Made by a program: the position numbers and the translations under genes. From assembly GCA_035274225.1 (NCBI GenBank), contig DATEOK010000250.1, positions 1,258-65,257 on the forward strand: a stretch of DNA of 64,000 bases. Reading direction: 5' to 3'. Numbering within the stretch: the first letter of the stretch is position 1; each line of letters opens with the position of its first letter. Of the stretch, positions 1 to 14,455 are shown piece by piece. The notes below the pieces were generated by a model that saw only the letters and a list, made by a program, of their open reading frames with translations, did no database searches and was not told where the DNA came from. The DNA is from Dongiaceae bacterium (GTDB lineage: Bacteria > Pseudomonadota > Alphaproteobacteria > Dongiales > Dongiaceae).

Positions 1-300
1 CCGATCCCGAAGTTCGACAATCCGAAGATGGACATGAACCCGGCGCTGCAGTTGTTCGGTGCCGGCCGCGAGAAGCGCATCTATGCGGTGCCGCCTTACA
101 CCAAGGTGAAGAGCCTGGATTTCGACGACTATCCGTTCGAGGTCCAGACCTGGGAGCATTCCTGCGCGCTGTGCGGCTCGGAGGAGAGCTTCCTGGACGA
201 GATCATCACCAGTGACCAGGGTGACCGCATGTTTGTCTGCTCGGACAGCGACTATTGCCAGGACCGGCAGACCGCCGGCCGGCGGGAGGCCGCGGAATGA
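1..300 (+). CDS. phnJ: C-P lyase subunit PhnJ, C-terminal fragment (5' end lies outside the window)
   Basis: The frame is open from base 1. It has a C-terminal Cys cluster (HSCALCGSEESF...FVCSDSDYC). Its stop overlaps the phnK start (ATGA at 297-300), and phnKLM-N follow. Confidence 0.85.
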   Translation, partial: PIPKFDNPKMDMNPALQLFGAGREKRIYAVPPYTKVKSLDFDDYPFEVQTWEHSCALCGSEESFLDEIITSDQGDRMFVCSDSDYCQDRQTAGRREAAE

Positions 301-1073
301 GCGAGCAACCGCTGCTGCGGGTCGAGCAGCTCAGCCGCTATTACGGCGCGCGTCCCGCCTGCGTCGACGTTACATTCGATCTCTGGCCGGGCGAGGTCAT
401 GGGCGTGGTCGGCGAATCCGGATCTGGCAAGACGACCTTGCTCAATTGCTTGTCGGCGCGGTTGAAGCCCGATTCAGGCCGCGTGCTCTATGACACGCGG
501 CACCACGGCCTCACCGACATCTACGGCATGAGCGAGGCAGAGCGGCGGCTGCTGATGCGTACCGACTGGGGGCTGGTGCACCAGAATCCGCGCGACGGCC
601 TGCGCCTCTCGGTCAGCGCCGGCGCCAATATTGGTGAGCGCTTGATGGCGGTCGGCGCGCGGCACTATGGCAACATCCGCCAGGAGGCGGTGAGTTGGCT
701 CGGCCGGGTGGAGATCGACGAAGAGCGGATCGACGACCAGCCGCGCGCCTTTTCCGGCGGCATGCAGCAGCGCCTGCAGATCGCCCGCAACCTGGTGACC
801 AAGCCGCGCATCGTGTTCATGGACGAGCCGACCGGCGGCCTCGACGTCTCAGTCCAGGCGCGGCTGCTCGACCTGCTGCGCGAGCTGGTGTCGCAGCTCG
901 GCTTGTCGGTGGTGGTGGTTACCCACGACCTTGCGGTGGTACGGCTGCTGGCGCACCGGTTGATGGTGATGCGCCAGGGACGAGTGGTCGAGACCGGGCT
1001 GACCGACCAGGTGCTGGACGATCCGCAGCATCCCTACACGCAATTGCTGGTTTCTTCGGTGTTACAGGCATGA
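297..1073 (+). CDS. phnK: Phosphonate C-P lyase system ATP-binding protein PhnK
   Basis: Walker A GESGSGKTT, ABC signature FSGGMQQR and Walker B IVFMDEPT are present. ATGA overlaps link it to phnJ upstream and phnL downstream. Confidence 0.9.
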   Translation: MSEQPLLRVEQLSRYYGARPACVDVTFDLWPGEVMGVVGESGSGKTTLLNCLSARLKPDSGRVLYDTRHHGLTDIYGMSEAERRLLMRTDWGLVHQNPRDGLRLSVSAGANIGERLMAVGARHYGNIRQEAVSWLGRVEIDEERIDDQPRAFSGGMQQRLQIARNLVTKPRIVFMDEPTGGLDVSVQARLLDLLRELVSQLGLSVVVVTHDLAVVRLLAHRLMVMRQGRVVETGLTDQVLDDPQHPYTQLLVSSVLQA

Positions 1074-1771
1074 ACGACATAGCGATCGAAGTCGGCGGGC
1101 TAGCCAAGCAGTTCCGCCTTCATACCCAGGGCGACGTGGCGATCGAGGTGTTCCGCAATCTCGATTTCCAGGTGCGGTTCGGCGAATGCGTCGCGCTGCA
1201 TGGGCCATCGGGCTGTGGCAAATCCACGCTGCTGCGTGCGCTGTATGCCAACTACACGGTAGGGGCGGGGAGCATCCGCGTCCGCCATTGCGGTGCGTGG
1301 GTGGACATGGCGAATGCGGAGCCGCGCGCGGTGCTGTCCGTCCGGCGGCATTCCATGGGCTATGTCAGTCAGTTTCTGCGAGTCATCCCGCGGGTGCCGG
1401 CGCTCGAGATCGTGGCCGAGCCTTTGCGCCTGCACGGCATCGATGCCGCATGGGCGCGGGAGCGCGCTAGTGCGATGCTGGCGCGGCTGAACGTGCCGGA
1501 GCGGTTGTGGAACCTGGCGCCGGCGACCTTCTCCGGCGGCGAGCAGCAGAGGGTCAACATCGCGCGCGGCTTCATCGCCGAGATGCCGATCCTGCTGCTG
1601 GACGAACCGACCGCCGCGCTCGACGCCGCCAACCGCGCCATCGTCGCCGACCTGATCCTGGAGCGAAAGGCGGCGGGCACGGCGATCGTCGGTATCTTCC
1701 ACGATGCGGAGATCCGCGAGCAGGTGTGTGATCGGATGTTCGAGATCGAACCCTTCAAGGTGGCGGCATGA
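1070..1771 (+). CDS. phnL: Phosphonate C-P lyase system ATP-binding protein PhnL
   Basis: Walker A GPSGCGKST, signature FSGGEQQR and Walker B LLLDEPT are present. The start ATG at 1070 overlaps the phnK stop, and the stop overlaps the phnM start. Confidence 0.9.
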   Translation: MNDIAIEVGGLAKQFRLHTQGDVAIEVFRNLDFQVRFGECVALHGPSGCGKSTLLRALYANYTVGAGSIRVRHCGAWVDMANAEPRAVLSVRRHSMGYVSQFLRVIPRVPALEIVAEPLRLHGIDAAWARERASAMLARLNVPERLWNLAPATFSGGEQQRVNIARGFIAEMPILLLDEPTAALDAANRAIVADLILERKAAGTAIVGIFHDAEIREQVCDRMFEIEPFKVAA

Positions 1772-2904
1772 GCATGATCCTCAGCAATGCCTGCGTGGTG
1801 ACGGCGGATGCCGTGATCCACGGCGCCGTGCGTGTCGAGAACGGCCGGATCATCGAGATCGTGCAGGATGCTCGCGCGACAGCCGGCGCCCAGGATCTGG
1901 ACGGCGACTACCTTCTTCCGGGCCTGGTCGAGATCCATACCGACAACATGGAAAAGCATTTCGAGCCGCGGCCCGGCGCGGTCTGGCCGTCTCCCCTGGC
2001 GGCGGTGCTGGCGCACGATGCCCAGGTGATCGGCGCTGGCATCACCACCGTGCTCGACGCGGTCTGCGTCGGCGACTACCGCGACAGCGGTAAACGCCGG
2101 CGCATTCTGAAGGACTCGATCGAAAGCGTCGCCACCGCGCGCGGCGCAGACCTGTTGCGTGCCGATCATCTGTTCCATTTGCGCTGCGAAGTCTCCGATC
2201 CCGGCGTGCTGGAGATGTTCGAGCCATACGCCGACCATCCGCTGCTGCGCCTGGTCTCGGTGATGGACCATACGCCGGGCCAGCGCCAGTGGCGTGACCT
2301 GGAGAGCTTCCGCACCTTCCACCGTGACAAGGGCTGGAACGACGCGGAGTTCGCCGACGTCATCGCCAAGCACCAGGTCCAGATGGCGACGCACTCCGAG
2401 GTGAACCGCAAGGCGGTCCTCGACCTGTGCCGGGGACTGGACGTGCCGCTCGCCAGCCATGACGACACCACCGAGGAGCATGTGGAGCAGGCGCACGCCG
2501 AGGGGATCACTATCTCCGAGTTCCCGACCGCCCTGGCTGCAGCGAAGCTGGCGCGCGCCTATGGCATGATGAACGTGATGGGCGCGCCCAACGTGGTGCG
2601 CGGCGGTTCGCATTCCGGCAACATCTCCGCCCAGGCGCTGGCCGAGGCGGGGCTGCTCGACGTTCTTTCCTCGGACTACGTGCCGGCCAGCCTGCTGCAC
2701 GCGGCATTCGTGCTGCATCAGCGCGCGAACCTTCGCCTTCCGGATGCCGTGCGCACGGTCGCGCTCAATCCGGCGCGCGCCATCGGCCTCTCCGACCGGG
2801 GCGAGATCGCGCCCGGCCAGCGCGCCGACCTGGTGCGGGTGCGCCTGCATGGCGACCTGCCGATCGTGCGTGAAGTCTGGCGCGGCGGTGGTCGCGTTGC
2901 CTAG
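1768..2904 (+). CDS. phnM: Alpha-D-ribose 1-methylphosphonate 5-triphosphate diphosphatase PhnM (amidohydrolase fold)
   Basis: 378-aa ORF. Metal-binding-type motifs EIHTDN and ASHDD are present. It sits in the canonical position after phnL. Confidence 0.9.
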   Translation: MSMILSNACVVTADAVIHGAVRVENGRIIEIVQDARATAGAQDLDGDYLLPGLVEIHTDNMEKHFEPRPGAVWPSPLAAVLAHDAQVIGAGITTVLDAVCVGDYRDSGKRRRILKDSIESVATARGADLLRADHLFHLRCEVSDPGVLEMFEPYADHPLLRLVSVMDHTPGQRQWRDLESFRTFHRDKGWNDAEFADVIAKHQVQMATHSEVNRKAVLDLCRGLDVPLASHDDTTEEHVEQAHAEGITISEFPTALAAAKLARAYGMMNVMGAPNVVRGGSHSGNISAQALAEAGLLDVLSSDYVPASLLHAAFVLHQRANLRLPDAVRTVALNPARAIGLSDRGEIAPGQRADLVRVRLHGDLPIVREVWRGGGRVA

Positions 2905-3600
2905 ATGAGCGAACGCTTTGCGATTTACTTCGCGCCGCCGGCGAGCGGCGATTTGGCGCGGTTCGGCGATCACTGGCTGGGTCGAAATGTGGAAACCGGC
3001 GCAGTCCTCGAGCAGCCTGACTTGAGCGGCTTCGATGCGGCCAGGTTGCGCGAACTCACCGAGGCCCCGCGCCAATACGGCTTTCACGGCACGCTCAAAC
3101 CGCCCTTTCGCTTGGCGGACGGGTGCGATGCAGGGGGCTTGCGGCGTTCCCTTGCCGGATTTGCGGCGCAACGGCGCGGATTCGAGGTCGAAGCCCTGGC
3201 TTTGGAGGGGATCGGCGATTTCATCGCTCTGGTGCCAGATGGATCGCCCCCGGCTTTGTCGGATCTGGCCGATCTGTGCGTGAACGAATTCGATCGCTAC
3301 CGCGCGCCGCCGGATGCCGCAGAGCTGGCAAGGCGCCACGCCGCCGGCCTCACGCCCCGCCAAGCGCAGCTGCTGGCGCGCTGGGGCTACCCCTATGTGC
3401 TGGACGAGTTTCGCTTCCACCTGACTCTCACAGGACCGATCGCCGACGCAGCCGAGCGCGCCCGCGTCGCACGATTGTTGGGACCGCTCGTCGCGCCGCT
3501 GCTGCCGCAGCCAGTGCCGGTGCAGGAACTCTGCCTGTTCCACCAACCGGACCGCGCCGCGCCGTTCCGGCTGATCCAGCGCTTTCCCTTCGGGCGATGA
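2905..3600 (+). CDS. DUF1045-type putative phosphonate metabolism protein (2H phosphoesterase-like)
   Basis: It starts 1 nt after the phnM stop, and its stop overlaps the phnN start (ATGA). Paired H-x-T motifs (FHGTLKPPF and FHLTLTGP) are characteristic of the 2H phosphoesterase superfamily. Confidence 0.75.
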   Translation: MSERFAIYFAPPASGDLARFGDHWLGRNVETGAVLEQPDLSGFDAARLRELTEAPRQYGFHGTLKPPFRLADGCDAGGLRRSLAGFAAQRRGFEVEALALEGIGDFIALVPDGSPPALSDLADLCVNEFDRYRAPPDAAELARRHAAGLTPRQAQLLARWGYPYVLDEFRFHLTLTGPIADAAERARVARLLGPLVAPLLPQPVPVQELCLFHQPDRAAPFRLIQRFPFGR

Positions 3601-4169
3601 AGCCGCAGCCCGACATCGCCGTCCGCGAAGGGCGCTTGGTCTATGTCATCGGATCGTCTGGAGCTGGCAAGGACAGTATCATTGCCCATGCGCGCCAGCG
3701 CCTCGGTTCGGAGCGGCATGTCTTTGCACGACGCCATATCACGCGGCCGGCTGATAGCGGTGGCGAGGATCATATCGCAATCACCATGGCGGAGTTCGAG
3801 CGGGACAGCGTGGCTGGGCGTTATGCGCTCTCATGGCGCGGCAATGGCCTCGGCTACGGCGTCGGGATCGAGATCGATCTGTGGCTGCGATCCGGGCGGC
3901 ACGTGATCCTGAACGGATCGCGTGCCTACCTGCCGGAGGTGGCAAGGCGTTACTCCACCCTGCTGCCGGTGCTGATCACGATCGACCCAGCCGTGCTGCG
4001 GCAACGATTGTCGGCGCGCGGCCGCGAATCGATGGATGAGATCGATGCGCGCATCCGCCGCGCCGCGGAACTGAGCACGATCGACCACCCGGAACTCGCT
4101 GTCGTTGCCAACGATGGGCCGCTGGCCGAAGCGGGCGAGGCCTTCGTTGCCTTGCTGCGCGCCCTCTAG
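3597..4169 (+). CDS. phnN: Ribose 1,5-bisphosphate phosphokinase PhnN
   Basis: P-loop GSSGAGKDS is present and the size (190 aa) is guanylate-kinase-like. It is the last gene of the phn string. Confidence 0.85.
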
Positions 4170-4975
4170 AGAAAGCGCCGCCGCAGCCAGGCGGACAAGA
4201 GGTCGAGCAGCGACACCGTGATGATGATCATGATCATCACCGCGCAAGTCTGCGCGAAATAGAATCCGCGAATCACTTCCCACAGCACCACGCCGATGCC
4301 GCCGGCGCCGACCATGCCGACGACGGTCGCTGAGCGCACGTTGGATTCGAAACGGTAGAGCGAGTAGGAGACCCAGAGCGGGATCACCTGCGGGATCACG
4401 CCGTAGAGAATCTCTTCCAACACATTAGCGCCGGTGGCACGGATGCCTTCAACCGGGCGCGGGTCGATCGCCTCGACCGCTTCGGAGAACAGCTTGGCAA
4501 GGATGCCGGTGGTGTGGACGAAAATCGCGAGCACGCCGGCGAACGGGCCAAGGCCGACGGCGACCACGAACAGCATGGCAAACACCATCTCGTTGATGGC
4601 GCGCAGCGCGTCCATCAGCCGGCGCACCGGCTGGCGCAGCCAGATCGGCGACAGGTTCTCGGCCGCCATCAGGCCGAAGGGAACAGCGAAGATGATCGCG
4701 AGGAACGTGCCCCAGACCGCGATCTGCAGGGTCTTGATGATCTCGTCCAGGTAGAAGCGCCAGTGAGAGAGGTCGGGCGGGAAGAACTCGGCGCCCAGCG
4801 TCGCCATGTTGCTTGAATCCTCGATCAAGGCCCATGGCCGGATGTCGGCGCCCTGGTACGAGTAGGCGAGGATGGCGAAGCCCAGGCCATAGAGCAGCAC
4901 GGTGCCGAGCGATGAGCGCAGCGATTTCGGCGGATAGGTGGACGCCTGGTGCAGCGCCTCGACTGTCTGGGCCAT
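4166..4975 (-). CDS. phnE: Phosphonate ABC transporter permease PhnE
   Basis: Multi-TM protein with the EAA-type loop [20 protein letters not shown] chose the ATG at 4975 because a GGAG lies upstream; a TTG at 5041 is an alternative. The stop overlaps the phnN stop in a CTAG. Confidence 0.85.
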
Positions 4976-5037
4976 GCCGTATGCTCCGGATAGAAAAGGG
5001 GCGCCGGCTTGGGTGAGGCCGGCGCCCGAGGATGAGT

Positions 5038-6027
5038 TCAATTGGTGGCGAGCGACTTTTCCTTTTCCTTGAGCTCGCCGAGCTTGGTGTCGATCTCCGC
5101 CAGCTTCGCCTGCTTATCGGCATCGGAGACGGTGGTATCGTTCTGCAGCGCAATGCGCTTCTTGAACAGCTCGAGGATGCGGATCGGAACGAGCTGGTCG
5201 TCGTTCGATTCCTTGAACTGGCCCCACTGCAGGCCGGCGAGGACCGTCTTTTCCTCCGGTGCCTTGCCGTAGGCCATGAAGAAGTCCTTGATCTTGGCCT
5301 TGTCGCCGTCGCTGAGGTTCTTGCGCCAGACGATCGGGTCGGAGGGGATCAGCGGCGACTTCCAGATGACCTTGATCTCCTTGAACTTGTCGGGGAAGTT
5401 CTTCTGGATCTTTGCCATGTTCTCCGTGTTGTTGGTGGCGAAATCGACCTGCTTGTTGGCAACCGCGAGCGCATTGGACTCGTGGTTGGCGCTGACGGTC
5501 TGCTTGAAATAGGTCTTGGGGTCGATGTTGTTCAGGCCGAAAACGTAGTAGCCCGGCACCAGGTAGCCCGAAGTCGAGTTCGGATCGCCGTTGGAGAAAG
5601 TCAGTTCCTTGCCGTACTTGATCACGTCCTCGACCGAGTTGAGCTTGCTGTCCTTGTGCGCGATCAGCAGCGACCAGTAGCCGGGGCTGCCATCGGCCGC
5701 CACCGTCTGCACGAAGATCTGGCCGCCGGCGCGGTCGACCGCTTCCATGGCCGACTTGTTGCCGTACCAGGCGACGTCGACCTTGTTGAAGCGCATGGCC
5801 TCGATCACGCCGGCATAGTCCGGCGCGAAAAAGGCATTCACCTTCATGCCGAGCTTCTTGCCCATGTCCGCCAGGAACGGATCCCAGACGGTCTTCAGGT
5901 TCTGCGAGGATTCGGTGGAGATGATGCCGAAATTCAGCTCCTTCAGGTCTTCCGCCTGCGCCGCGGTGCCGAGGCCGACGGCTAAGGTAAGCGACAGGGC
6001 GGCCGATCTAAGCCATTTGCCGATCAT
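5038..6027 (-). CDS. phnD: Phosphonate ABC transporter periplasmic substrate-binding protein PhnD
   Basis: Signal peptide [25 protein letters not shown] is present. A GAGGGAG SD lies upstream of the ATG at 6027. The gene sits between phnC and phnE. Confidence 0.9.
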
Positions 6028-6064
6028 GCGAGTAACTCCCTCTGGTTGGACATGGATGAACGGT

Positions 6065-6943
6065 TCAGCCGGCCGCGGCGATCGCGAGCGCTTCGGCCGG
6101 TTGCGGGAAGCCGACGACCTTGCGGTGGCGCGGCCCGTGCGCCGGCGCAATGACCTCGCCGAGCAGCAACTCTTCCGCTTCGGCGCCATAGAGCTCGCCG
6201 AGCTTTTCCGGAGTGAGCGCAGCGCTGGGGCCGTCGAACACCACCTTGCCGTCGCGCAGCGCGACGGTGCGCGGGCAATAGCGCATGGCGAACTGGACCT
6301 GATGCAGCGAGACCAGAACGGTCACGCCATCGGTGCGGTTGAGCTCGGCCAGCGATTCCATGACCCGGCGCGCCGCCTCCGGATCGAGCGAGGCGATCGG
6401 CTCGTCGGCCAGCACCAGCTGAGCGCGCTGCACCATCGCGCGGGCGATGGCGGCACGTTGTTGCTGGCCGCCGGACAGATTGGCGGCGCGCTGGAACGCC
6501 CAGTCGGCGATCCCGACGCGCTGCAGCGCCGCGATCGCCAGGCGGCGCTCCTCCTCGGGAAAGCGGAAGGTCAGGCTCCGCCACAGCGGCAGCCGGCTCA
6601 AGGTGCCGATCAGCACGTTGGTGATGACGGACAGGCGGTTGACCAGATTGAACTGCTGGAACACGAACCCGACATTGCCGCGGATGCGGCGCACGTCGGC
6701 GCTGAGGCGGCCTTCCGCCTGTACATCCCGGCCGCCGACGATGACGTGGCAGACGTTGGGCTCACGGTCGCCAGCCACCAGGCCGGCCAAGTGGCGCAGC
6801 AGGGTCGACTTGCCGGAGCCCGAGGCCCCAATGAGCGCCACCATCTCGCCCGGCGCGATCTGCAGATCGACGTTGTCGAGGGCCCTGCGGCCACTGTTGA
6901 AGGTCTTGCTGAGGCCGCGAACCTCGACCGCCCACTGGTTCAT
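6065..6943 (-). CDS. phnC: Phosphonate ABC transporter ATP-binding protein PhnC
   Basis: Walker [13 protein letters not shown], signature LSGGQQQR and Walker [11 protein letters not shown] are present. It is the first gene of the phnCDE string. Confidence 0.9.
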
Positions 6944-7321
6944 GCCATGCTCCCGAATCGATGACGTACCCTGCCGCGGCCGGCGTTATTGCGCCGACTC
7001 CGTGCTTTTCGGGAATTGTGCGCGGGCGCGCCGACCGAGGCGTCGGCCAAGCCGTGAAGAATGGTTGGCGGTTTTGTGACAGACGGCGGATGGAGGAATT
7101 GCTTGTCTAGGGGGCCCGTCCCGGTGCATAAGCCGCTGCCTCGGCAGAGAGCGGGATACCGCAGAATGCATTGGTCAGGAGCAACATCAGGGCTTTGTCC
7201 AAGCATGATCGGTAGGGTCGTGGGTAGCGGGTCGGAATGTCTTGCAAGCCATTGATTTGATTGATAGTCGATCTCCCACCCTCTCCGCCATCCTGCTTGG
7301 CGCCGGCGTGCTGCGCAGGAC

Positions 7322-7567
7322 ATGTCCAGATATTCGGAGCAAATTTTGGCCCGCAAGAAACCTGCAGCCGGCGACTTCGCCCTGTTCGACGTGTTCTATC
7401 AGGACGGCACCCGTACCTCGAACCGCAAGGTTCCGGCGGCAGAACCGCACGAGCACGACTATGAGGCGCGCGTCAGAGCCGTCATCGAGGAACAGGATCG
7501 CGACATCGCCGAAAAATCCGGCCGGCCGCGCGGCCCTATCAAGTCGATCGTGAAGTCGGCAGGATAG
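7322..7567 (+). CDS. Small hypothetical protein (81 aa)
   Basis: Third-position GC is high, as in genuine genes of this replicon. The composition is charged and non-repetitive. No recognisable domain. Confidence 0.5.
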   Translation: MSRYSEQILARKKPAAGDFALFDVFYQDGTRTSNRKVPAAEPHEHDYEARVRAVIEEQDRDIAEKSGRPRGPIKSIVKSAG

Positions 7568-7792
7568 CGTCGCACCATCGGCGATGCATCAAACGCGGGC
7601 GCATATCGTTCGCATCGATGAGCGATGCGGCAAAGCTCGATACAGGCCATTTTCCACGTCGAATCAGGCGCTTGCTTCACTTCAGCTGGTCGCGCCCCGC
7701 GCCCGCCGTGAAAGTTCCGCCGGTTCGAATCAACGGCTTCCGCCGAATTCGTCTCGTTGGTTATGATGCGGCAGGAATGCTTGGGGGAAGCC

Positions 7793-8224
7793 ATGCAGTA
7801 TCGACTCTCGTCCTCGCCGAATGTCAGCGCGCGCTCGTTCGGCGATGAGGTTGTGGCCGCCAACTTCGTGAAGGGGGTCTATTACAGCCTGCTGGGACCG
7901 GCGGCGCAGATCTGGGACGGCCTGATAGCGGGCGTGGCGATCGAAACCGTCATCGCGCAGACAGCGGCACTGAGCGACGCCGATGCCGCGGATTTCGCCG
8001 CCGCCGCCAATAACCTTGTCCAGGCGCTGCTGGACGAGCAGCTCATCGAGCCAGCTCCGGATGCTGCAGCGACCGCCTGGCAACCGGTGCCGGGCGCGGA
8101 CGGTCCGTATGGCTTGCCGGTCATCGAGCGGTTCACGGACATGGAAGACCTGCTCCAGCTCGACCCGGTCCACGATGTGGAGGAAATGGGTTGGCCGCAT
8201 GTCAATCCGGCTTCGACTCGTTGA
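7793..8224 (+). CDS. PqqD-family (RiPP recognition element-like) protein with a C-terminal extension of about 57 aa
   Basis: The core FGDEVVAANFVKGVYYSLLGPAAQIWDGL matches the PqqD pattern (x-DGE-x-hh-h-x-x-G-x-YY-x-LN-x-x-G-x-x-IW-x-x-L). A GGGGGAAG SD lies before the ATG at 7793. The 3' end overlaps the kinase gene. Confidence 0.7.
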   Translation: MQYRLSSSPNVSARSFGDEVVAANFVKGVYYSLLGPAAQIWDGLIAGVAIETVIAQTAALSDADAADFAAAANNLVQALLDEQLIEPAPDAAATAWQPVPGADGPYGLPVIERFTDMEDLLQLDPVHDVEEMGWPHVNPASTR

Positions 8225-9246
8225 CCTATCCGCGGCCACCGGATCTGCGCGACCTGCTGCGTGCTGCGCTCATCGAGACTGACACGCGGGCTACGGCGCG
8301 GCGTCTCCCGCAGCCGGTGTTCCGGTTCGGCGGGACATCGGTTGCCATTCGCCTCAGCGGCACGCCGCCGTTGGAGCGGCTCTTGCCGATGATCGGCAGC
8401 CGTGCCGATGCTGCCGCGCACGACACGGCCGTGCTCGACGTCATCGGCGGCGCGCTGGAAGGTCATGAGGGGCTGCTGCCGCCGGCGGAGGCGCGCAGCC
8501 GGACGGTGCTGCGGGCCACCCGCGACATCTATTACCTGTGGCTGAACGAAGCCGACGGGTACCTGACCGCCATCGATCGCCGCGCGGGAAGGGGACTGGT
8601 ATGGTTCACGGCCCCGGACCGGATTGCCTCCTGGCATGTCGCACGGCCGTTCCTGCATGCCATCAAGGGGTTTTCGCTGGAGACGTCCTGGACGCCGATC
8701 CATGCCGCCAGCGTCGCCATCGAGGGCAAGGCGGTGCTGATCGTGGGGCAGAGCGGGGCCGGCAAGACCAGCATCGCATTGTCCTGCGTGACCCAGGGCT
8801 GGAGCTATCTCGGCGACGACGCGGTGATCGTCAGGGCGAACCCGGCCCGCGTCGGCGCGCTCTACAGCTCGGCGCGGCTGCGTGCCGACACCTTTGCCCG
8901 GTTTCCGGAGATCATGAAGGCATGCCTGGCGGTCTCCGACGATGCAGGCGAACAGAAGGCTGAAGTGGACATGACGCTGCTTCCCGCACAACGGGCCGCG
9001 GAGGCCGAGATCCGCGCGATCCTGGTGCCGCAGCCCGGCGACTGGAGCGAGCTGCGCCTCGCCCCCATGCACAAGTCGGACGCGCTGCGCAAGCTGATGG
9101 AAGCGACGCGCCAGAGCATGATCGGCGACGAGGCGGCGGTGTTCGCCAAGCTGTCGACGCTGGTCGCGTCGGTGCCGTGCTACCATCTGGCTGCTTCCGG
9201 CGACCCCGCTGTGCTCGGCGCCGGCCTTGCGAAGCTGCTGGACTGA
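8191..9246 (+). CDS. HprK-related serine kinase (HPr kinase C-terminal-domain-like)
   Basis: P-loop GQSGAGKTS is followed by SYLGDDAVIV, as in the HprK/P motif G-x-SG-x-GKSE...LVADD. The start is uncertain: TTG at 8191, or TTG at 8221 overlapping the upstream TGA. Confidence 0.75.
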   Translation: MAACQSGFDSLTYPRPPDLRDLLRAALIETDTRATARRLPQPVFRFGGTSVAIRLSGTPPLERLLPMIGSRADAAAHDTAVLDVIGGALEGHEGLLPPAEARSRTVLRATRDIYYLWLNEADGYLTAIDRRAGRGLVWFTAPDRIASWHVARPFLHAIKGFSLETSWTPIHAASVAIEGKAVLIVGQSGAGKTSIALSCVTQGWSYLGDDAVIVRANPARVGALYSSARLRADTFARFPEIMKACLAVSDDAGEQKAEVDMTLLPAQRAAEAEIRAILVPQPGDWSELRLAPMHKSDALRKLMEATRQSMIGDEAAVFAKLSTLVASVPCYHLAASGDPAVLGAGLAKLLD

Positions 9247-9256
9247 GGTGCCGATC

Positions 9257-9943
9257 GTGAAGGTAAGCGTCATCATCCCGGTCTACAACGGCAGCAAGTA
9301 TCTCGCTGCCACGCTCGAGACGGTGTTGGGGCAGAGCTATCCGCTGCACGAGATCATCGTCATCGATGACGGCTCGACCGATTCCTCGCCGTCGATCCTG
9401 AGCGGGTACGGGGAGCGCTTGCGCGTCACGCGGCAGAGCAACCGTGGCGTCGCGGCGACGCGCAATGTCGGGCTGCAGCAGGCGTCAGGCGAGTTGATCA
9501 CCTTCATCGATCAGGACGACCTGTGGCCCGTCGACCGGACCAAGATTCTGGTCGAGGCATTGCAGGCCGATCCCAAGGCCCAGGTGGCGACGGGCCTGGT
9601 GGATATCCTTTATGAACGCGCGCGGCCGGCGAGCCCGCTCGACAACTTCAGCACGACGATGCGCGAGTATTTTGTAGGCTCCCTCCTAATCAGGAAGGAG
9701 GTCTTCGACATCCTCGGCCCGTTCCACACCGGGATCGGCTATGCCGACGATGTCGATTTCATGATGCGCCGGCGGGAGGCAAACATCGCGACCGTGTATG
9801 TCGACCAGGTCACGTTGAAATACCGCTTGCATGAAGAGAACACCTCCGGAGACCGCGACGTGACCAACCGGCACCTGATGGCCGCCCTGCGCGAATCGCT
9901 GCAGAGGCGCCGCAAGGCCGGAGGGCAGCCGCCGAATGCATGA
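9257..9943 (+). CDS. Family 2 glycosyltransferase (short, soluble type)
   Basis: It contains VSVIIPVYNGSKYL, VIDDGSTDSS and the DxD motif DQDD. The GTG at 9257 lies 7 nt after a GAGG. It is a paralog of the next gene. Confidence 0.8.
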   Translation: MKVSVIIPVYNGSKYLAATLETVLGQSYPLHEIIVIDDGSTDSSPSILSGYGERLRVTRQSNRGVAATRNVGLQQASGELITFIDQDDLWPVDRTKILVEALQADPKAQVATGLVDILYERARPASPLDNFSTTMREYFVGSLLIRKEVFDILGPFHTGIGYADDVDFMMRRREANIATVYVDQVTLKYRLHEENTSGDRDVTNRHLMAALRESLQRRRKAGGQPPNA

Positions 9944-9979
9944 TGCGGATGCAGGGCGTGAGCCGGTTGGAGCGGCGGC

Positions 9980-10672
9980 ATGAGGATCTCGGTCATCGTG
10001 CCGCTCTACAACACGCGAGCCTACATTGCCGATGCGATCGACAGCATCCTCGCGCAGACCCGGCCGCCCGACGACGTGGTCGTCGTCGACGACGGATCGA
10101 CCGACGGTTCGCCGGACCTGGTGGCCGGCTACGCCCCGCGCGTCCGCCTGTTCCGCCAGGCCCACGCCGGATCAGCGACGGCCTTGAACCGGGGCATCGT
10201 CGAGACGACCGGAGAAACGATCGCTTTCCTCGACGCCGACGACCTGTGGGAGCGGGACAAGCTGAAACTGCAGGAAACGGTCCTGCACGCGGAGCCGGAG
10301 ACCGATTGCGTCTTCGGCCTGGTGCAGCAGTTCGGCCAAGGCAAGATTCGGCGGGAACCGCAGCGCGGCGTGTCGCGCATCAGCATGCTGATCAGACGTA
10401 CCGCATTCGAGCGATTCGGCTTGTTCGACACAACGCTCCGTGTGGCCGACTTCGTGCCCTGGTACGCCCATGCTGTCGCGATGGGCCTGAAGATGCGGAT
10501 GGTGGAACGCGTTGTCGCCCACCGGCGCCTTCACGACACCAATTCCGGGATCACGCGGCGCGGCGAGCAGCAGCAGGAAAGCCTGCTCGGCCTGAAGCAG
10601 GCGCTGGATCTGCGGCGGCGGCGATCCAGCCCGGCTCCGTCTGAAGACGGGAAAGCGCGCGATCGGGACTAG
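9980..10672 (+). CDS. Family 2 glycosyltransferase (tandem paralog)
   Basis: It contains ISVIVPLYNTRAYI, VVDDGSTDGS and the DxD motif DADD. The stop overlaps the stop of the convergent gene in a CTAG. Confidence 0.8.
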   Translation: MRISVIVPLYNTRAYIADAIDSILAQTRPPDDVVVVDDGSTDGSPDLVAGYAPRVRLFRQAHAGSATALNRGIVETTGETIAFLDADDLWERDKLKLQETVLHAEPETDCVFGLVQQFGQGKIRREPQRGVSRISMLIRRTAFERFGLFDTTLRVADFVPWYAHAVAMGLKMRMVERVVAHRRLHDTNSGITRRGEQQQESLLGLKQALDLRRRRSSPAPSEDGKARDRD

Positions 10673-12582
10673 GTAGGCGAGGAATTCGGCGCCGGAGTGA
10701 GCGAGATGCGGCGGACCTGCAGCCCCTCCTTGCGCCGGCGTGCGGGAGTCTCGATCTCGAACCGGACTTCGATCTCTTGCCCCGCCGGATAGTGCGCCGA
10801 AATCGGAACAGAGAGCGTCAGCTCCTTGGTCGATGGCGGCGCGCTGAACGGCCGGCCGGGCCGGTCATTGACGAAGAGGCGGCCCGATATGCCCTGCGCG
10901 TTCGCCGCGACGTCGGCGATCTCGATCTGCAGGCTTGACCCGGGCTCCATGTCGCGGGCGGCTCGCCAGCGCAGCACGGCGGTCGATCCTTCGCTCCAGC
11001 ATCCCTGCGCCTCGGGCCTGGACCAGCCGTGCCAAAGCACGTCGAGATCGGCACTGCCGCGGGCAAGATCGAGCGGCTTCGCGGCCGGGTCGCGCAACAC
11101 CGGGTCGACGGAAATGTGCGTGACAAAAACCCCCAGTGCCCGGGTGTCGCCGTTGAAGCCGGTCTCGATGGGGGAAATTGGCCGGCGGCACTTGAAGCGG
11201 AGCACGGCGGTTTCGCCGCGCCAGATCGAAGGCGGCAGCAGGATCTGCTGGGCGAACGGTCCCGCGCCCGACTTGCGCCAGCGCAGAGTGCCGAGGCGGC
11301 GCCACCCGGCGAAGACGGTGACGACATGGGCGGCGGTGGCGTGGTGCGCGAACGGCTTGCCGCGGAACGACAAGCTCGCCGGGCGCGTCCCATTCGCCGC
11401 GTAGAGCGCGCAGGATGCCAGCTTTCCTTCTGTCCAGCGGCCGGCTGCTTCCGGCGCGGACCAGCCTTGCAGATAGGTGATCGGCTCGCCGCGATCGTTC
11501 TGGATGAACGTGCGGCTGCCGCCGAACGAGCCCAGCATCGATGCGGCCAGAATCGGAATCGCCTGCCAGGCGGATCGCTGCGATTGCACGAGGCTGCGCC
11601 GCCGGATGTCCTGCAAGGCGAGCAGCAACTCGTCCGGGACCGAGCGGGCAGCCGGTCTCGACAAGCGGATTCGGCATTCGAGGCGTTGCAGGACGGCCAG
11701 CGGCTGCCGAAGCCTTTGCAAGGCCGCGCCGGGAAACTCAAGCCCCGCCTTGTCGCGCGCGTTCTCGAGGGCGCGGCCCACCGCGAAGCCGAAGCGATAG
11801 CGAAGCGCGGTGTCCACCAGCCTGTCCCAATCGAACGCGGCCGCCGTGCGGCGAAGGATCTTGATGGTGTCGATCAGCCAGTCGTATCGCGGGAACGGCG
11901 ACCATTCCAATCCGTGGACGATGGCATGAAAGACCAGGTGCTCCGGACAGGGCACGCGGCACGATCGGCCGGCGAAATCCACCGGTCGCGCCGCCGCGAA
12001 CATGTCGCGCGCCAGCTCGTCCGCGCCGACCGCCCGCAGCGGCCGCCAATGGAGGTCGACGGCAGCATGCCGATTGCCGCGCAGCGCGAGGGTGATGCCG
12101 TGGGCGACATCGACGTCGCGCGGCCCGGCCATGCCGGGCGTGAGCAAGTTCGCGCGCGCGAGCAAGTCGACCACCTCGAGCGCGCGGTCCCTCGGCACCA
12201 GCAGGTCGCAGTCCGACATCGCGCGCAGGCCGGGATCGTCATCGATGCTGGAGGCGATGGCCGCGCCCTTGAGCAGCAAAACCGGCACCTGGGCCCGGTC
12301 GAGGATGTCGAGCAACATCCCGCAGCTGGCGACCAGGAACTGGTTCTTGATCCAGTGGTGGCGGGCGGTGCCCTTCAGCCGGGCGTGCAGCGTGCGGTCG
12401 CGGATGCTTGCTCCGAGGTTCCAGTAGACCTGGGGGAAGAGGTTGGCGTCGGTGCCGCGGACCTGATCGAAGTCGGTGATGTTGGCCCACCACGCATCCA
12501 GCGCGGCCGCGGCCACCGCCTTGTCACGGCACATGGCGGCGTTGAGCAAAAGGACTTGCTGCTGGCCGATCCCAAAATCCAC
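10669..12582 (-). CDS. PF14907-like (NTP_transf_5) nucleotidyltransferase with two C-terminal GWS-PEA-G-W-EG modules
   Basis: The N-terminal half carries VPVLLLKGAA, RAMSDCDLLV and AAVDLHW, as in uncharacterised nucleotidyltransferases. I chose the GTG at 12582 because it is preceded by GGGGGAG; a TTG at 12678 is an alternative. Confidence 0.75.
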   Translation of the reverse strand: MDFGIGQQQVLLLNAAMCRDKAVAAAALDAWWANITDFDQVRGTDANLFPQVYWNLGASIRDRTLHARLKGTARHHWIKNQFLVASCGMLLDILDRAQVPVLLLKGAAIASSIDDDPGLRAMSDCDLLVPRDRALEVVDLLARANLLTPGMAGPRDVDVAHGITLALRGNRHAAVDLHWRPLRAVGADELARDMFAAARPVDFAGRSCRVPCPEHLVFHAIVHGLEWSPFPRYDWLIDTIKILRRTAAAFDWDRLVDTALRYRFGFAVGRALENARDKAGLEFPGAALQRLRQPLAVLQRLECRIRLSRPAARSVPDELLLALQDIRRRSLVQSQRSAWQAIPILAASMLGSFGGSRTFIQNDRGEPITYLQGWSAPEAAGRWTEGKLASCALYAANGTRPASLSFRGKPFAHHATAAHVVTVFAGWRRLGTLRWRKSGAGPFAQQILLPPSIWRGETAVLRFKCRRPISPIETGFNGDTRALGVFVTHISVDPVLRDPAAKPLDLARGSADLDVLWHGWSRPEAQGCWSEGSTAVLRWRAARDMEPGSSLQIEIADVAANAQGISGRLFVNDRPGRPFSAPPSTKELTLSVPISAHYPAGQEIEVRFEIETPARRRKEGLQVRRISLTPAPNSSPT

Positions 12583-12746
12583 AGACTGCTCCCCCGAAAG
12601 CCCGAGCCTTATATCAGATGTTGCGGAAGGCAACGAGCGTGGCGCTGCCGTTCCTATCTGCCGGCGGCGGGCCGGCAATGTGATTGGCGATCGCCGCGAA
12701 GGGCATTACTCTGGCCACCGAGGGCGGATGGCAGGGAGGCGTTGCC

Positions 12747-13547
12747 GTGCAGCGAAGCGTGCGTGTCCTCGCGATGGTTGTCTGGGCGGCCGTGCTCTGG
12801 GCGCCGCCGGCGGCCCGGGCGGCCGACATGCCGGTCGACCTCGAGCTCATCCTCGCGGTCGACGTGTCGCGGTCGATGGACATCGACGAGCAGCAGTTGC
12901 AGCGCGACGGCTATGTCGCGGCGATCACCCATCCCGAGGTGATCGAGGCCATCACCCAGGGCCGGAACGGCAGGATCGCGCTCACCTACGTTGAGTGGGC
13001 GGGGCCGGACACGCAGTACAAGGTGGTGGACTGGCGCGCGATCGACGGGCCGGAGTCGGCCAGGGCCTTCGCCGCCGCGCTGGCGCAGGCGCCGATCCAG
13101 CGCTTCCGCGGCACCTCGATCTCCAACGGCCTGGTGTTCGTCGCGCCGCAGTTCGACCACAACGGCTTTGCAGCGACGCGCCGCGTGATCGACGTGTCGG
13201 GCGACGGGCCGAACAACATGGGCATCCCGATCGAGGTGGCGCGCGCGCCCGTCCTCAGCGCCGGCATCACCATCAACGGCCTGCCGATCATGATCAAGCA
13301 GCCGGGCGGCTTCGCCGCGATCCCCAATCTCGACGCGTATTATGAGCAGTGCGTCATCGGCGGGTTCGGCGCCTTCCTGGTGGTGGTGCAGTCCGCCGAC
13401 CAGTTCGCCGAGGCGATCCGCCGCAAGCTGGTGCTCGAGATCGCCGGCCGCGAACCGCAGATCATCCCGGCCGCCGCGGTGGCGAGCGACGAGCGCATGG
13501 ACTGCCTGATCGGCGAGAAGCTGCGCGAGCAGTGGATGCGCGAATAG
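12747..13547 (+). CDS. Exported vWA-like DUF1194-type protein
   Basis: A signal peptide ends in ARAAD. A MIDAS-like motif LAVDVSRSMD is present. The GTG at 12747 lies 7 nt after GGGAGG. Confidence 0.7.
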   Translation: MQRSVRVLAMVVWAAVLWAPPAARAADMPVDLELILAVDVSRSMDIDEQQLQRDGYVAAITHPEVIEAITQGRNGRIALTYVEWAGPDTQYKVVDWRAIDGPESARAFAAALAQAPIQRFRGTSISNGLVFVAPQFDHNGFAATRRVIDVSGDGPNNMGIPIEVARAPVLSAGITINGLPIMIKQPGGFAAIPNLDAYYEQCVIGGFGAFLVVVQSADQFAEAIRRKLVLEIAGREPQIIPAAAVASDERMDCLIGEKLREQWMRE

Positions 13548-13609
13548 CGGGATCCGTGGTCGCATTTTCTGCGCCCAACCGGCGTCCACTTCGGCGGAAA
13601 ATGCTCCGG

Positions 13610-14455
13610 CTAGTCGGCCGCGGCCTCGCCGGGCTCGGCGCGCACGTCCGCCTTGGTCAGATGGATCACGATATTGCCGAGCGCGATCGCGCCGTCATAG
13701 CGCACCGGCACGGGCGGCAGGTCCGGCCGGATCGCCGCGACCCAGATCGTCGGCGCCGACGACGGGGCATCCCATTGGCGTTTCGATTTCCAGCTTTTCC
13801 GGAATCCGGAGATCCGTTTCATGCTGACGCTGCAGCGCACGGCCCGGCCTTGATAGATAGAATAGTCGTTGGGGGGCAGCGTCGCCTCGTCGACCTGCTT
13901 CAAGGTAAGGTCGTAGCGGCGCTGGCCGTCGAACACCGGCAGGGTCTGGTCGCAGCGGCCGCTCTCCGCCAGCGCCCGGCTGGCGGCGACGGCGAGGCTC
14001 AGCGGATCGACGGTTCCCTCGGGCAGCGTCTCTGGCAAGCCGCCTTCGATGTCGGGGTCGGGTTCCGGCGGCGGTGTCCGCAGCAGCGCATAACGGCCGT
14101 CCCCGGCAAAACCGAGATCGACCGTTCGCCGCGTGCCCTGCCATGCGGAGTCCGTGACATAGCGCAATGGCTCGATCCGGTCGTTGTGCTCCAGTCCCTC
14201 GGCGGCAAGCTTCACGTCCCAGCGGTACAGCCAGCCGACCATGCCCTCGGTCTCGCCTTCAGCGCTCACGCGGTAGCGGTCCGGCCGCAATGTCATGGCG
14301 ACATCGAGCGTGAAGATGTGCAGGCCGCCGAGATAGACGTCGTAGGTCAGGTCCATGGTGCGCGCCGACGAAGTCTCGGCCGCGCGGGCAGGCGGTGCCG
14401 CTGCCATCGCGGTGCCGACACATAGAAAGATGAAGCAAGCGGTCAGGCGAGACAT
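13610..14455 (-). CDS. Exported hypothetical protein (DUF3108-like)
   Basis: Signal peptide MSRLTACFIFLCVGTAMAAAPPARA is present and codon bias is good. The family call is from memory only. Confidence 0.6.
   Translation of the reverse strand: MSRLTACFIFLCVGTAMAAAPPARAAETSSARTMDLTYDVYLGGLHIFTLDVAMTLRPDRYRVSAEGETEGMVGWLYRWDVKLAAEGLEHNDRIEPLRYVTDSAWQGTRRTVDLGFAGDGRYALLRTPPPEPDPDIEGGLPETLPEGTVDPLSLAVAASRALAESGRCDQTLPVFDGQRRYDLTLKQVDEATLPPNDYSIYQGRAVRCSVSMKRISGFRKSWKSKRQWDAPSSAPTIWVAAIRPDLPPVPVRYDGAIALGNIVIHLTKADVRAEPGEAAAD

Follow-up and report, generated by a model that had tools for sequence, protein, structure and literature searches.

What does a set of lasso-peptide accessory genes do where the lasso core genes are missing? 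This question is raised by a group of five genes in a 64,000-nt stretch of DNA from a Dongiaceae bacterium (contig DATEOK010000250.1), here called the window. The genes encode a PqqD-like protein with a RiPP recognition element (RRE; RiPP, a peptide made by the ribosome and modified after translation), a kinase related to HprK, two family 2 glycosyltransferases (GT2A and GT2B), and a nucleotidyltransferase of family PF14907. All five family assignments had been proposed in a sequence-only reading of the window, and all are upheld here. On sequence grounds, the locus is a self-contained, horizontally mobile cassette in which a Firmicutes-type lasso accessory toolkit (a B1-type RRE, a kinase K, and a nucleotidyltransferase N) is joined to two GT2s.

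By analogy with characterized lasso tailoring, the cassette may phosphorylate an acceptor and cap the phosphate with a sugar that the GT2s then extend, with the RRE protein serving as adaptor or carrier. This is the reading that we favor, at a little less than an even chance, and its product would most likely be a short phosphate-linked oligosaccharide. The component families are all known. Their combination (K, N, GT2s, and a lasso-type RRE bearing an invariant tail and a leader-like motif in tethered form, in the absence of lasso core enzymes and of a precursor) is undescribed in the literature searched (PF14907, HPr-rel-A, RRE with HPr kinase, and PqqD/HprK with exopolysaccharide, EPS).

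Organization of the cassette

The overall G+C content of the window is about 66%, and long spurious open reading frames (ORFs) are therefore frequent; real genes were told apart by codon-position G+C. The coding sequences of the cassette have a third-position G+C (GC3) of 0.78–0.85. The first gene, for the RRE protein of 143 aa, runs from 7793 to 8224 on the + strand, with its ATG at 7793 preceded by GGGGGAAG and its TGA at 8222–8224. The start of the cassette had earlier been placed at 7584. That position is the start of a spurious 60-aa ORF (GC3 0.54), and the cassette thus begins at 7793. The kinase gene (+ strand) ends with TGA at 9246. It starts at either of two TTG codons: TTG 8221, which forms a TTGA with a 4-nt overlap with the RRE gene and gives 341 aa, or TTG 8191, with a 34-nt overlap and 351 aa. 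Judged from the DNA, the TTGA start/stop overlap is most likely the true junction, and an 84%-identical metagenomic contig has the same arrangement.

GT2A (9257–9943, + strand, GTG start, 228 aa) follows the kinase after a 10-nt gap, and GT2B (9980–10672, + strand, ATG start, TAG at 10670–10672, 230 aa) follows GT2A after a gap of 36 nt. The nucleotidyltransferase gene (10669–12582, – strand, 637 aa) is convergent with GT2B; its stop lies at 10669–10671, and a CTAG is common to the stops of both genes. Its GTG start at 12582 agrees with the onset of homology, at residues 29–32 of the long ORF. The tight packing, the two gaps, and the stop-stop overlap described in the sequence-only reading can all be read directly in the DNA. 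The motifs quoted there are likewise all found: FGDEVVAANFVKGVYYSLLGPAAQIWDGL, GQSGAGKTS, YLGDD, DDGSTD with DQDD or DADD, LLLKGAA, MSDCDLLV, and VDLHW.

The cassette sits between a divergent phosphonate transporter operon (phnCDE-like, 4166–6943, – strand) and a DUF1194 gene (12684–13547). As had been stated before, no cyclase, protease, or exporter lies nearby, within positions 1–22500: by Pfam annotation of the ORFs between 255 and 22462 of the window, the region outside the cassette holds only phn genes, ABC transporters, DUF1194, DUF3108, a cupin, and regulators.

The RRE domain

The RRE protein consists of a PqqD/RRE domain (about residues 1–88), a linker, and a conserved C-terminal tail, and it exceeds a normal B1 protein in length by about 55 residues. 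Its score with PF05402 (PqqD) is 22.1 bits against a gathering score of 23.4, and that of the kinase with PF07475 is 33.1 bits against 33.3. Since both scores are just under gathering, both assignments were checked independently by structure and profile. Many homologues bear precomputed Pfam matches. The AlphaFold2 model of the RRE protein has a predicted local distance difference test score (pLDDT) of 86, and its best Foldseek matches are the TbiB1-leader complexes 5V1V and 5V1U (E 3e-5, target-normalized TM score 0.81–0.83) and TfuB1 (6JX3). A profile built from 40 diverse members of the family matches TbiB1 at E 1.6e-17, including the β3 G-x-Y strand. Among family models, NF033536 (lasso_PqqD_Bac), the NCBIfam model of Bacillus-type lasso B1 chaperones, is matched by all 40 members; no other model matches as many of them or reaches so low an E-value. 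The RRE is thus, in sequence and in modeled structure, a relative of lasso B1 proteins, and as a B1-type RRE it is predicted to bind peptide.

One relative, protein P0292 (284 aa), is a natural tandem duplication of the whole RRE and tail unit, with a degenerate first tail and a canonical second one.

The conserved C-terminal tail

The tail of about 40 residues, with its leader-like motif, is a newly recognized feature that was absent from the sequence-only reading. Conservation in the family is highest here, with the consensus P-[FY]-x-x-P-x-L-x-[KR]-[FY]-T-D-M-Q-D-L-L-L-L-D-P-[IV]-H-E-V-D-E-x-G-W-P-[HN], after which there is a short variable end (median 8 residues). In the window, the motif of the lasso-leader YxxPxL type is Y106-G-L-P109-V-I111 (8108–8125, + strand). 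It is followed by the near-invariant acidic segment ERFTDMEDLLQLDPVHDVEEMGWPH (residues 112–136; 8126–8200, + strand). Residues D116, D124, P125, H127, G133, W134, and P135 do not vary between clades whose RRE domains are only about 30% identical. Of 258 tail-bearing proteins, 249 (97%) have the pattern [FYW]xxPx[LIFVM] in one and the same register, and in 79 of these it is exactly YxxPxL. A search of 1.84 billion representatives, clustered at 50% identity, with a profile of the tail only (47 positions) matches at least 3062 clusters at E ≤ 1e-3, of which 1502 pass E ≤ 1e-10. Nearly all matches are proteins of 140–160 aa with the tail at the C-terminus.

B1 proteins bind the YxxPxL of leader peptides, according to the TbiB1 and TfuB1 complex structures. 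In lasso leaders, this motif is conserved at positions –17 to –12 (PMC10368454). The AlphaFold2 model places a strand at residues 111–114, and the linker and motif (residues 91–110) have a pLDDT of about 91. The RRE groove is probably occupied in cis by the protein's own [FY]xxPxL strand. Neither the PDB nor Pfam gave a match to the tail.

Two ideas about the tail were considered and rejected. Stand-alone tail peptides do not seem to exist: the tail-only proteins of 46–70 aa are assembly fragments, because they are singletons on contigs below 1.2 kb and one of them clusters with a 146-aa protein. Nor is T115 an obligatory phospho-acceptor, for it is not universal; the position is T or S in 238 of the 258 proteins and D, E, N, A, or G in the other 20.

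The kinase, the nucleotidyltransferase, and the glycosyltransferases

Homologues of the kinase bear the precomputed Pfam family PF27840 (ScmC), and their Walker A (GQSGAGKTS) and YLGDD motifs show little or no variation. By word-indexed search, the kinase family is small, with 73 clusters. The AlphaFold2 model (pLDDT 92.8) finds ATP-dependent PEPCK as its best PDB match (E 1.6e-9), followed by the HprK/P structures 1KO7 and 1KNX. The protein is, on its modeled fold, a P-loop kinase of the HprK/ScmC type, with the PEPCK-like fold that includes HprK, and its P-loop and DD motif are intact. An antisense ORF inside the kinase gene (8532–8774, – strand), which appears "conserved" in two orthologous loci (L001 and L002), was rejected as a gene; it is a shadow of the high-GC coding strand.

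The nucleotidyltransferase scores 100.6 bits with PF14907, and its NTP_transf_5 domain lies at about 11755–12399 (– strand). It has no sequence relative in the PDB. The mutated catalytic residues of PsmN, the corresponding enzyme of pseudomycoidin synthesis, are D134 and D136 (PMC6993621), and the DxD in MSDCDLLV resembles them at the level of the motif. Orthologues are 45–66% identical over the full length. A C-terminal extension (10672–11559, – strand) is built of a repeat of about 145 aa that occurs twice in tandem; both copies open with GWSxPExxGxWxEG, and they match one another at a BLASTP E of 7e-6. The repeats belong to the alphaproteobacterial clade and are lacking from homologues in other clades: L001–L004 keep them, and the shorter enzymes of L006, L021, L023, and L025 have none. 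Their similarity to DUF7024 is weak and not significant (E 0.14), and that they bind carbohydrate is only a guess.

Both GT2s have a GT-A domain with the expected DxD (PF00535, 114 bits for GT2A and 108 bits for GT2B). GT2A bears DDGSTD and DQDD and is 53–75% identical to its orthologues in L001–L005; GT2B bears DDGSTD and DADD, with orthologues 54–64% identical. The two are only about 33% identical to each other, and are therefore old paralogues. Orthologous cassettes have two, three, or four tandem GT2 copies, a variation seen in L002 (11071–13086) and L019 (3290–5983). The additional GT2 of L002 is A-like, at 43% identity to GT2A.

A kinase, a nucleotidyltransferase, and glycosyltransferases side by side also make up the classic logic of sugar activation. 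Thus, the cassette could serve nucleotide-sugar salvage, in which an anomeric sugar kinase supplies a sugar-1-phosphate, the PF14907 enzyme converts it to a nucleoside diphosphate sugar, and the GT2s consume the latter. The closeness of the kinase model to PEPCK fits such a scheme, as does the match of the kinase to the FomB family of small-molecule kinases (E 7e-7), and epimerases accompany the cassette in relatives. However, PF14907 enzymes are nucleotidyltransferases of the pol-β type and do not have the fold of sugar-1-phosphate nucleotidylyltransferases. Salvage also offers no role for the strictly conserved RRE-tail protein, whose gene is translationally coupled to that of the kinase, and PsmN works downstream of peptide phosphorylation. 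We consider salvage improbable.

Relation to lasso tailoring and to other systems

The reading that we favor, phosphorylation and glycosylation of an acceptor, is modeled on the pseudomycoidin and paeninodin type of lasso pathway (PsmB1/PsmK/PsmN; PadeK, ThcoK, and BsfK). The link to lasso accessory enzymes that had been drawn from the gene content is upheld: lasso B1 proteins are the nearest relatives of the RRE, and the only characterized relatives of the kinase and of the PF14907 enzyme act one after the other on lasso precursors, by phosphorylation and hexosylation (PMC8498205, PMC6993621). The lasso-precursor kinases phosphorylate Ser, either C-terminal or internal (PMC8498205, PMC10368454). 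In pseudomycoidin, PsmN adds one or two hexoses to the phosphate after PsmK has acted (PMC6993621), so that the known outcome of such pathways is a Ser-O-phosphate capped with one or two hexoses. The cassette and these pathways have in common a B1-type RRE and a pair of the PsmK/PsmN type, an HprK-like P-loop kinase and a PF14907 enzyme with a DxD, both members of which are present in the cassette. The YxxPxL leader motif is also common to both; in the cassette it is fused to the RRE and followed by the invariant tail. In contrast to the lasso pathways, the cassette lacks the cyclase C, the B2 protease, a separate precursor gene, and an exporter, and it has dedicated GT2s and a nucleotidyltransferase with two extra C-terminal repeats.

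Three other systems offer partial likenesses. The NCBIfam HPr-rel-A system, to which the sequence-only reading had likened the locus, is likewise an uncharacterized pair of a PqqD-family chaperone and an HprK-related kinase. TIGR04352 (HprK_rel_A) matches the kinase of the cassette only partially (profile positions 99–266), at 40.9 bits (E 1.2e-10) against a cut-off of 200, and TIGR04353 (PqqD_rel_X) does not match at E ≤ 0.01; therefore, the cassette is not an HPr-rel-A system. In the wider RRE family, 11 of the 40 members match TIGR04353 (best E 3.5e-6), always more weakly than they match the lasso B1 models. The cassette is better described as a sister system, and the resemblance as one of kind.

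The SynChlorMet cassette combines a kinase-like ScmC with a PqqD-like ScmD. Homologues of our kinase belong to the ScmC family PF27840, and 19 of the 40 RRE-family members match ScmD (TIGR04248) weakly. The two systems differ in that TIGR04249 gives 23.6 bits against a cut-off of 125 and the cassette has no radical SAM/SPASM enzymes; we know of no GT2 or PF14907 gene in SynChlorMet. The analogy that had been made to the glycosyltransferases of glycocins is not borne out: GT2B scores 16.2 bits with SunS (TIGR04195) against a cut-off of 350, and SunS is not among the 25 families listed for GT2A.

Distribution and neighborhoods

A genome scan found five orthologous loci and one distant locus in Myxococcota. 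The orthologous carriers are Rhodospirillum-like and other alphaproteobacterial metagenome-assembled genomes and the cultured Rhodoplanes tepidamans DSM 9987. The order RRE, kinase, GT2(s), nucleotidyltransferase is kept in every locus of the scan. At least 12 independent loci, drawn from Alphaproteobacteria, Myxococcota, and an actinobacterium-like clade, show the same four families in this order, which is beyond chance. All-against-all clustering of plausible ORFs from 10 loci gave no fifth shared partner, only the four cassette families. The window's flanking genes are absent from the loci of the genome scan, and the flanks of the orthologous alphaproteobacterial loci L026–L028 are unrelated metabolic genes. 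The cyclase and the B2 protease are also absent from L001–L006 and L019–L028. The locus is, as had been proposed, stand-alone in the lineage of the window.

Signs of insertion were seen next to several cassettes. In the metagenomic contig L019, a tRNA-Arg(ACG) gene (1646–1722) ends about 100 nt 5′ of the first gene, and a tRNA-like 3′ fragment occupies the same place relative to the cassette in L002 (about 9440–9510). Just upstream of the cassette in Rhodoplanes tepidamans (L028, 6795–9227), there is a SIR2-STAND NTPase gene and an AT-rich stretch. Given the unshared flanks, the tRNA signs, and the variable number of GT2s, the cassette behaves like a small mobile island.

Could such a cassette be the remnant of a lasso cluster that lost its cyclase, protease, and precursor, and now makes no product? 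All three non-glycosyltransferase families are lasso accessories, and there is no C, B2, or A gene nearby. Nevertheless, no locus has a broken ORF or catalytic motif, the coding GC3 is 0.78–0.85, the architecture is retained across phyla, and the tail family comprises thousands of representative clusters. We regard decay as very improbable.

A profile search with the RRE alignment widens the family to more than 695 clusters. A larger, distant, actinobacterium-like clade (about 35% identity; L021, L023, and L025 are among its loci) has the same five genes among constant neighbors. One side is made up of a Wzx flippase, a protein of 340 aa, and a sortase; the other has an epimerase, a second PF14907 gene, a hydrophobic ORF, a Wzz/BY-kinase, a Wzy_C protein, and a GT4. 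The hydrophobic ORF, which is conserved after the second PF14907 gene (34–37 aa; L021 16264–16377, L023 14929–15033, L025 7313–7426), has the look of a lone membrane helix and not of a RiPP precursor. The contig of another relative adds an ABC exporter and a sulfotransferase, both lasso-associated, and an epimerase, and it is still without a cyclase.

These surroundings raise the alternative that the cassette is a surface-glycan module, whose enzymes decorate a lipid-linked or polymeric glycan, for example with a phospho-sugar side branch on an exopolysaccharide or capsule. The RRE-tail protein would then be a subunit of the kinase, its groove plugged in cis, and no peptide would be involved. 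The constant setting of the distant clade speaks for this alternative, and so does L020, in which two kinases and a PF14907 gene stand among GT4 genes without an RRE. Furthermore, the copy number of the GT2s varies as in glycan loci, these enzymes best resemble enzymes of lipopolysaccharide, EPS, and teichuronic acid synthesis, the nucleotidyltransferase has two DUF7024-like repeats, and there is no conserved peptide gene. Wzx/Wzy-dependent EPS loci likewise have multiple GT2s, and it is in such loci that the distant homologous cassettes are embedded.

The orthologues tell against it. Neither the cassette of the window nor its orthologues have a flippase, a polymerase, an initiating phosphoglycosyl transferase, or an exporter within 10 kb, and a flippase, a Wzy-type polymerase or ligase, and a chain-length regulator are absent from the window and from L026–L028; the flanks of the orthologues, as described above, are metabolic. 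An RRE and an HprK-like kinase are non-standard components of EPS loci. The B1-type G-x-Y strand is retained in the RRE, and to our knowledge every characterized RRE binds peptide. The similarity of the repeats to DUF7024, as noted, is not significant. Embedding in EPS loci with no peptide ORF, which the sequence-only reading had named as evidence against a peptide modifier, is thus found in the distant clade, with its Wzx/Wzy/Wzz loci, and not in the orthologues. We judge a surface-glycan module to be less likely than the reading that we favor.

The acceptor and the proposed mechanism

The reading in which the cassette phosphorylates and glycosylates an acceptor with the help of the RRE protein would proceed in three steps. 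First, the kinase would phosphorylate a hydroxyl on the acceptor. Second, the PF14907 enzyme would place the first sugar on that phosphate as a cap, in the manner of PsmN, which follows PsmK in pseudomycoidin. Third, GT2A and GT2B would lengthen the chain, a task that could fall to three or four GT2s in relatives. The range of two to four GT2s supports this reading, because variation is expected for glycan length or diversity. The RRE protein, translationally coupled to the kinase, would be the adaptor, and its cis-docked leader-like strand would display the acidic tail to the enzymes. The RRE-tail protein itself, or else an unlinked peptide or protein, would be the acceptor.

The acceptor is the weak point of this proposal, and several findings weigh against it. 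No acceptor was identified, and no flank holds a conserved small ORF. Position 115, which has the only widely conserved hydroxyl of the tail, is T or S in 92% of the proteins, and L003, L004, and L006 have neither residue there although their enzymes are intact. The C-terminus after GWP is short and often contains no Ser or Thr. The fold of the kinase is equally close to PEPCK, a small-molecule kinase. The gammaproteobacterium-like L020 has two related kinases and PF14907 among GT4 genes with no RRE, the cassette of the window has no exporter, and the mechanism of PsmN is itself unresolved (PMC6993621).

The search for a precursor gave a consistent picture. Comparison of orthologous loci, which the sequence-only reading had suggested for finding a conserved small ORF beside the kinase/PqqD pairs, revealed none. 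When all ORFs of 10–120 aa in the intergenic DNA on both sides of the cassette in 8 loci were compared with one another, only low-complexity Arg/Ala matches came up. One candidate in the window, orf81 (7322–7567, + strand), was rejected as a precursor, as it does not stand beside the cassette in L001–L006. It is an 81-aa charged intergenic ORF with a GC3 of 0.74, for which Pfam and PADLOC gave no match. In a place similar to that of orf81, a closely related contig carries an ORF of 61 aa.

A special form of the proposal deserves to be stated separately. The RRE protein may be its own substrate or carrier, a leader-in-cis scaffold bearing the phosphate-linked oligosaccharide built by the enzymes of the cassette. 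In such a scaffold, the RRE would be fused both to a leader of the lasso type, [FY]xxPxL, and to an invariant segment for presentation. If true, this would explain the missing precursor gene in thousands of loci, but we hold this form to be rather unlikely.

Flanking regions and other sequence features

Upstream alignment revealed an 11-mer, TTGG(T/C)TATGAT, common to the window (7757–7767, + strand), L001, and L019. It lies about 25–45 nt 5′ of the ATG of the first gene in the three loci (26 nt in the window), and it may be, on this evidence, a –10 element of a promoter. A sigma-70 consensus scan of the 5′ region returned no promoter and did not pick up the 11-mer, and positions 6900–7900 have no Rfam match to a riboswitch or other RNA. 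The 5′ flank had been described as visibly low in GC. It is indeed lower (0.60–0.62 against 0.66–0.69), but the difference is modest and the region is merely an 850-nt intergenic one.

To the left of the cassette, positions 255–6943 form a phosphonate-use region, with two phnK/L-like ABC-type ATPases (255–1771), a phnM-like amidohydrolase (1768–2904), a DUF1045 gene (2905–3600), and the divergent phnCDE-like transporter, which is composed of a permease (4166–5041), a phosphonate-binding protein (5038–6189), and an ATPase (6065–6943). The right flank (12684–14455) holds the DUF1194 gene (vWA-like, + strand) and a DUF3108 gene (– strand). This pair is also found 3′ of the cassette in the 84%-identical contig and not in more distant orthologues. 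An anti-phage defense system was considered and rejected, as PADLOC gave only a P-loop-level match (E 0.007).

Implications

RREs serve genome miners as a flag of peptide natural-product pathways. Whether an RRE can work with a tethered pseudo-leader matters for RiPP mining, on account of false positives, and for the engineering of leader-free modification systems. The cassette could give PF14907 enzymes and ScmC/HprK-like kinases a role outside lasso peptides, and it bears on whether phosphate-linked glycosylation is a general bacterial modification. If the RRE protein does carry its own glycan, the result would be either a phosphoglycan primed by a protein or a RiPP-like glycoprotein of a new kind. 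The cultured carrier Rhodoplanes tepidamans DSM 9987 makes the question directly testable.

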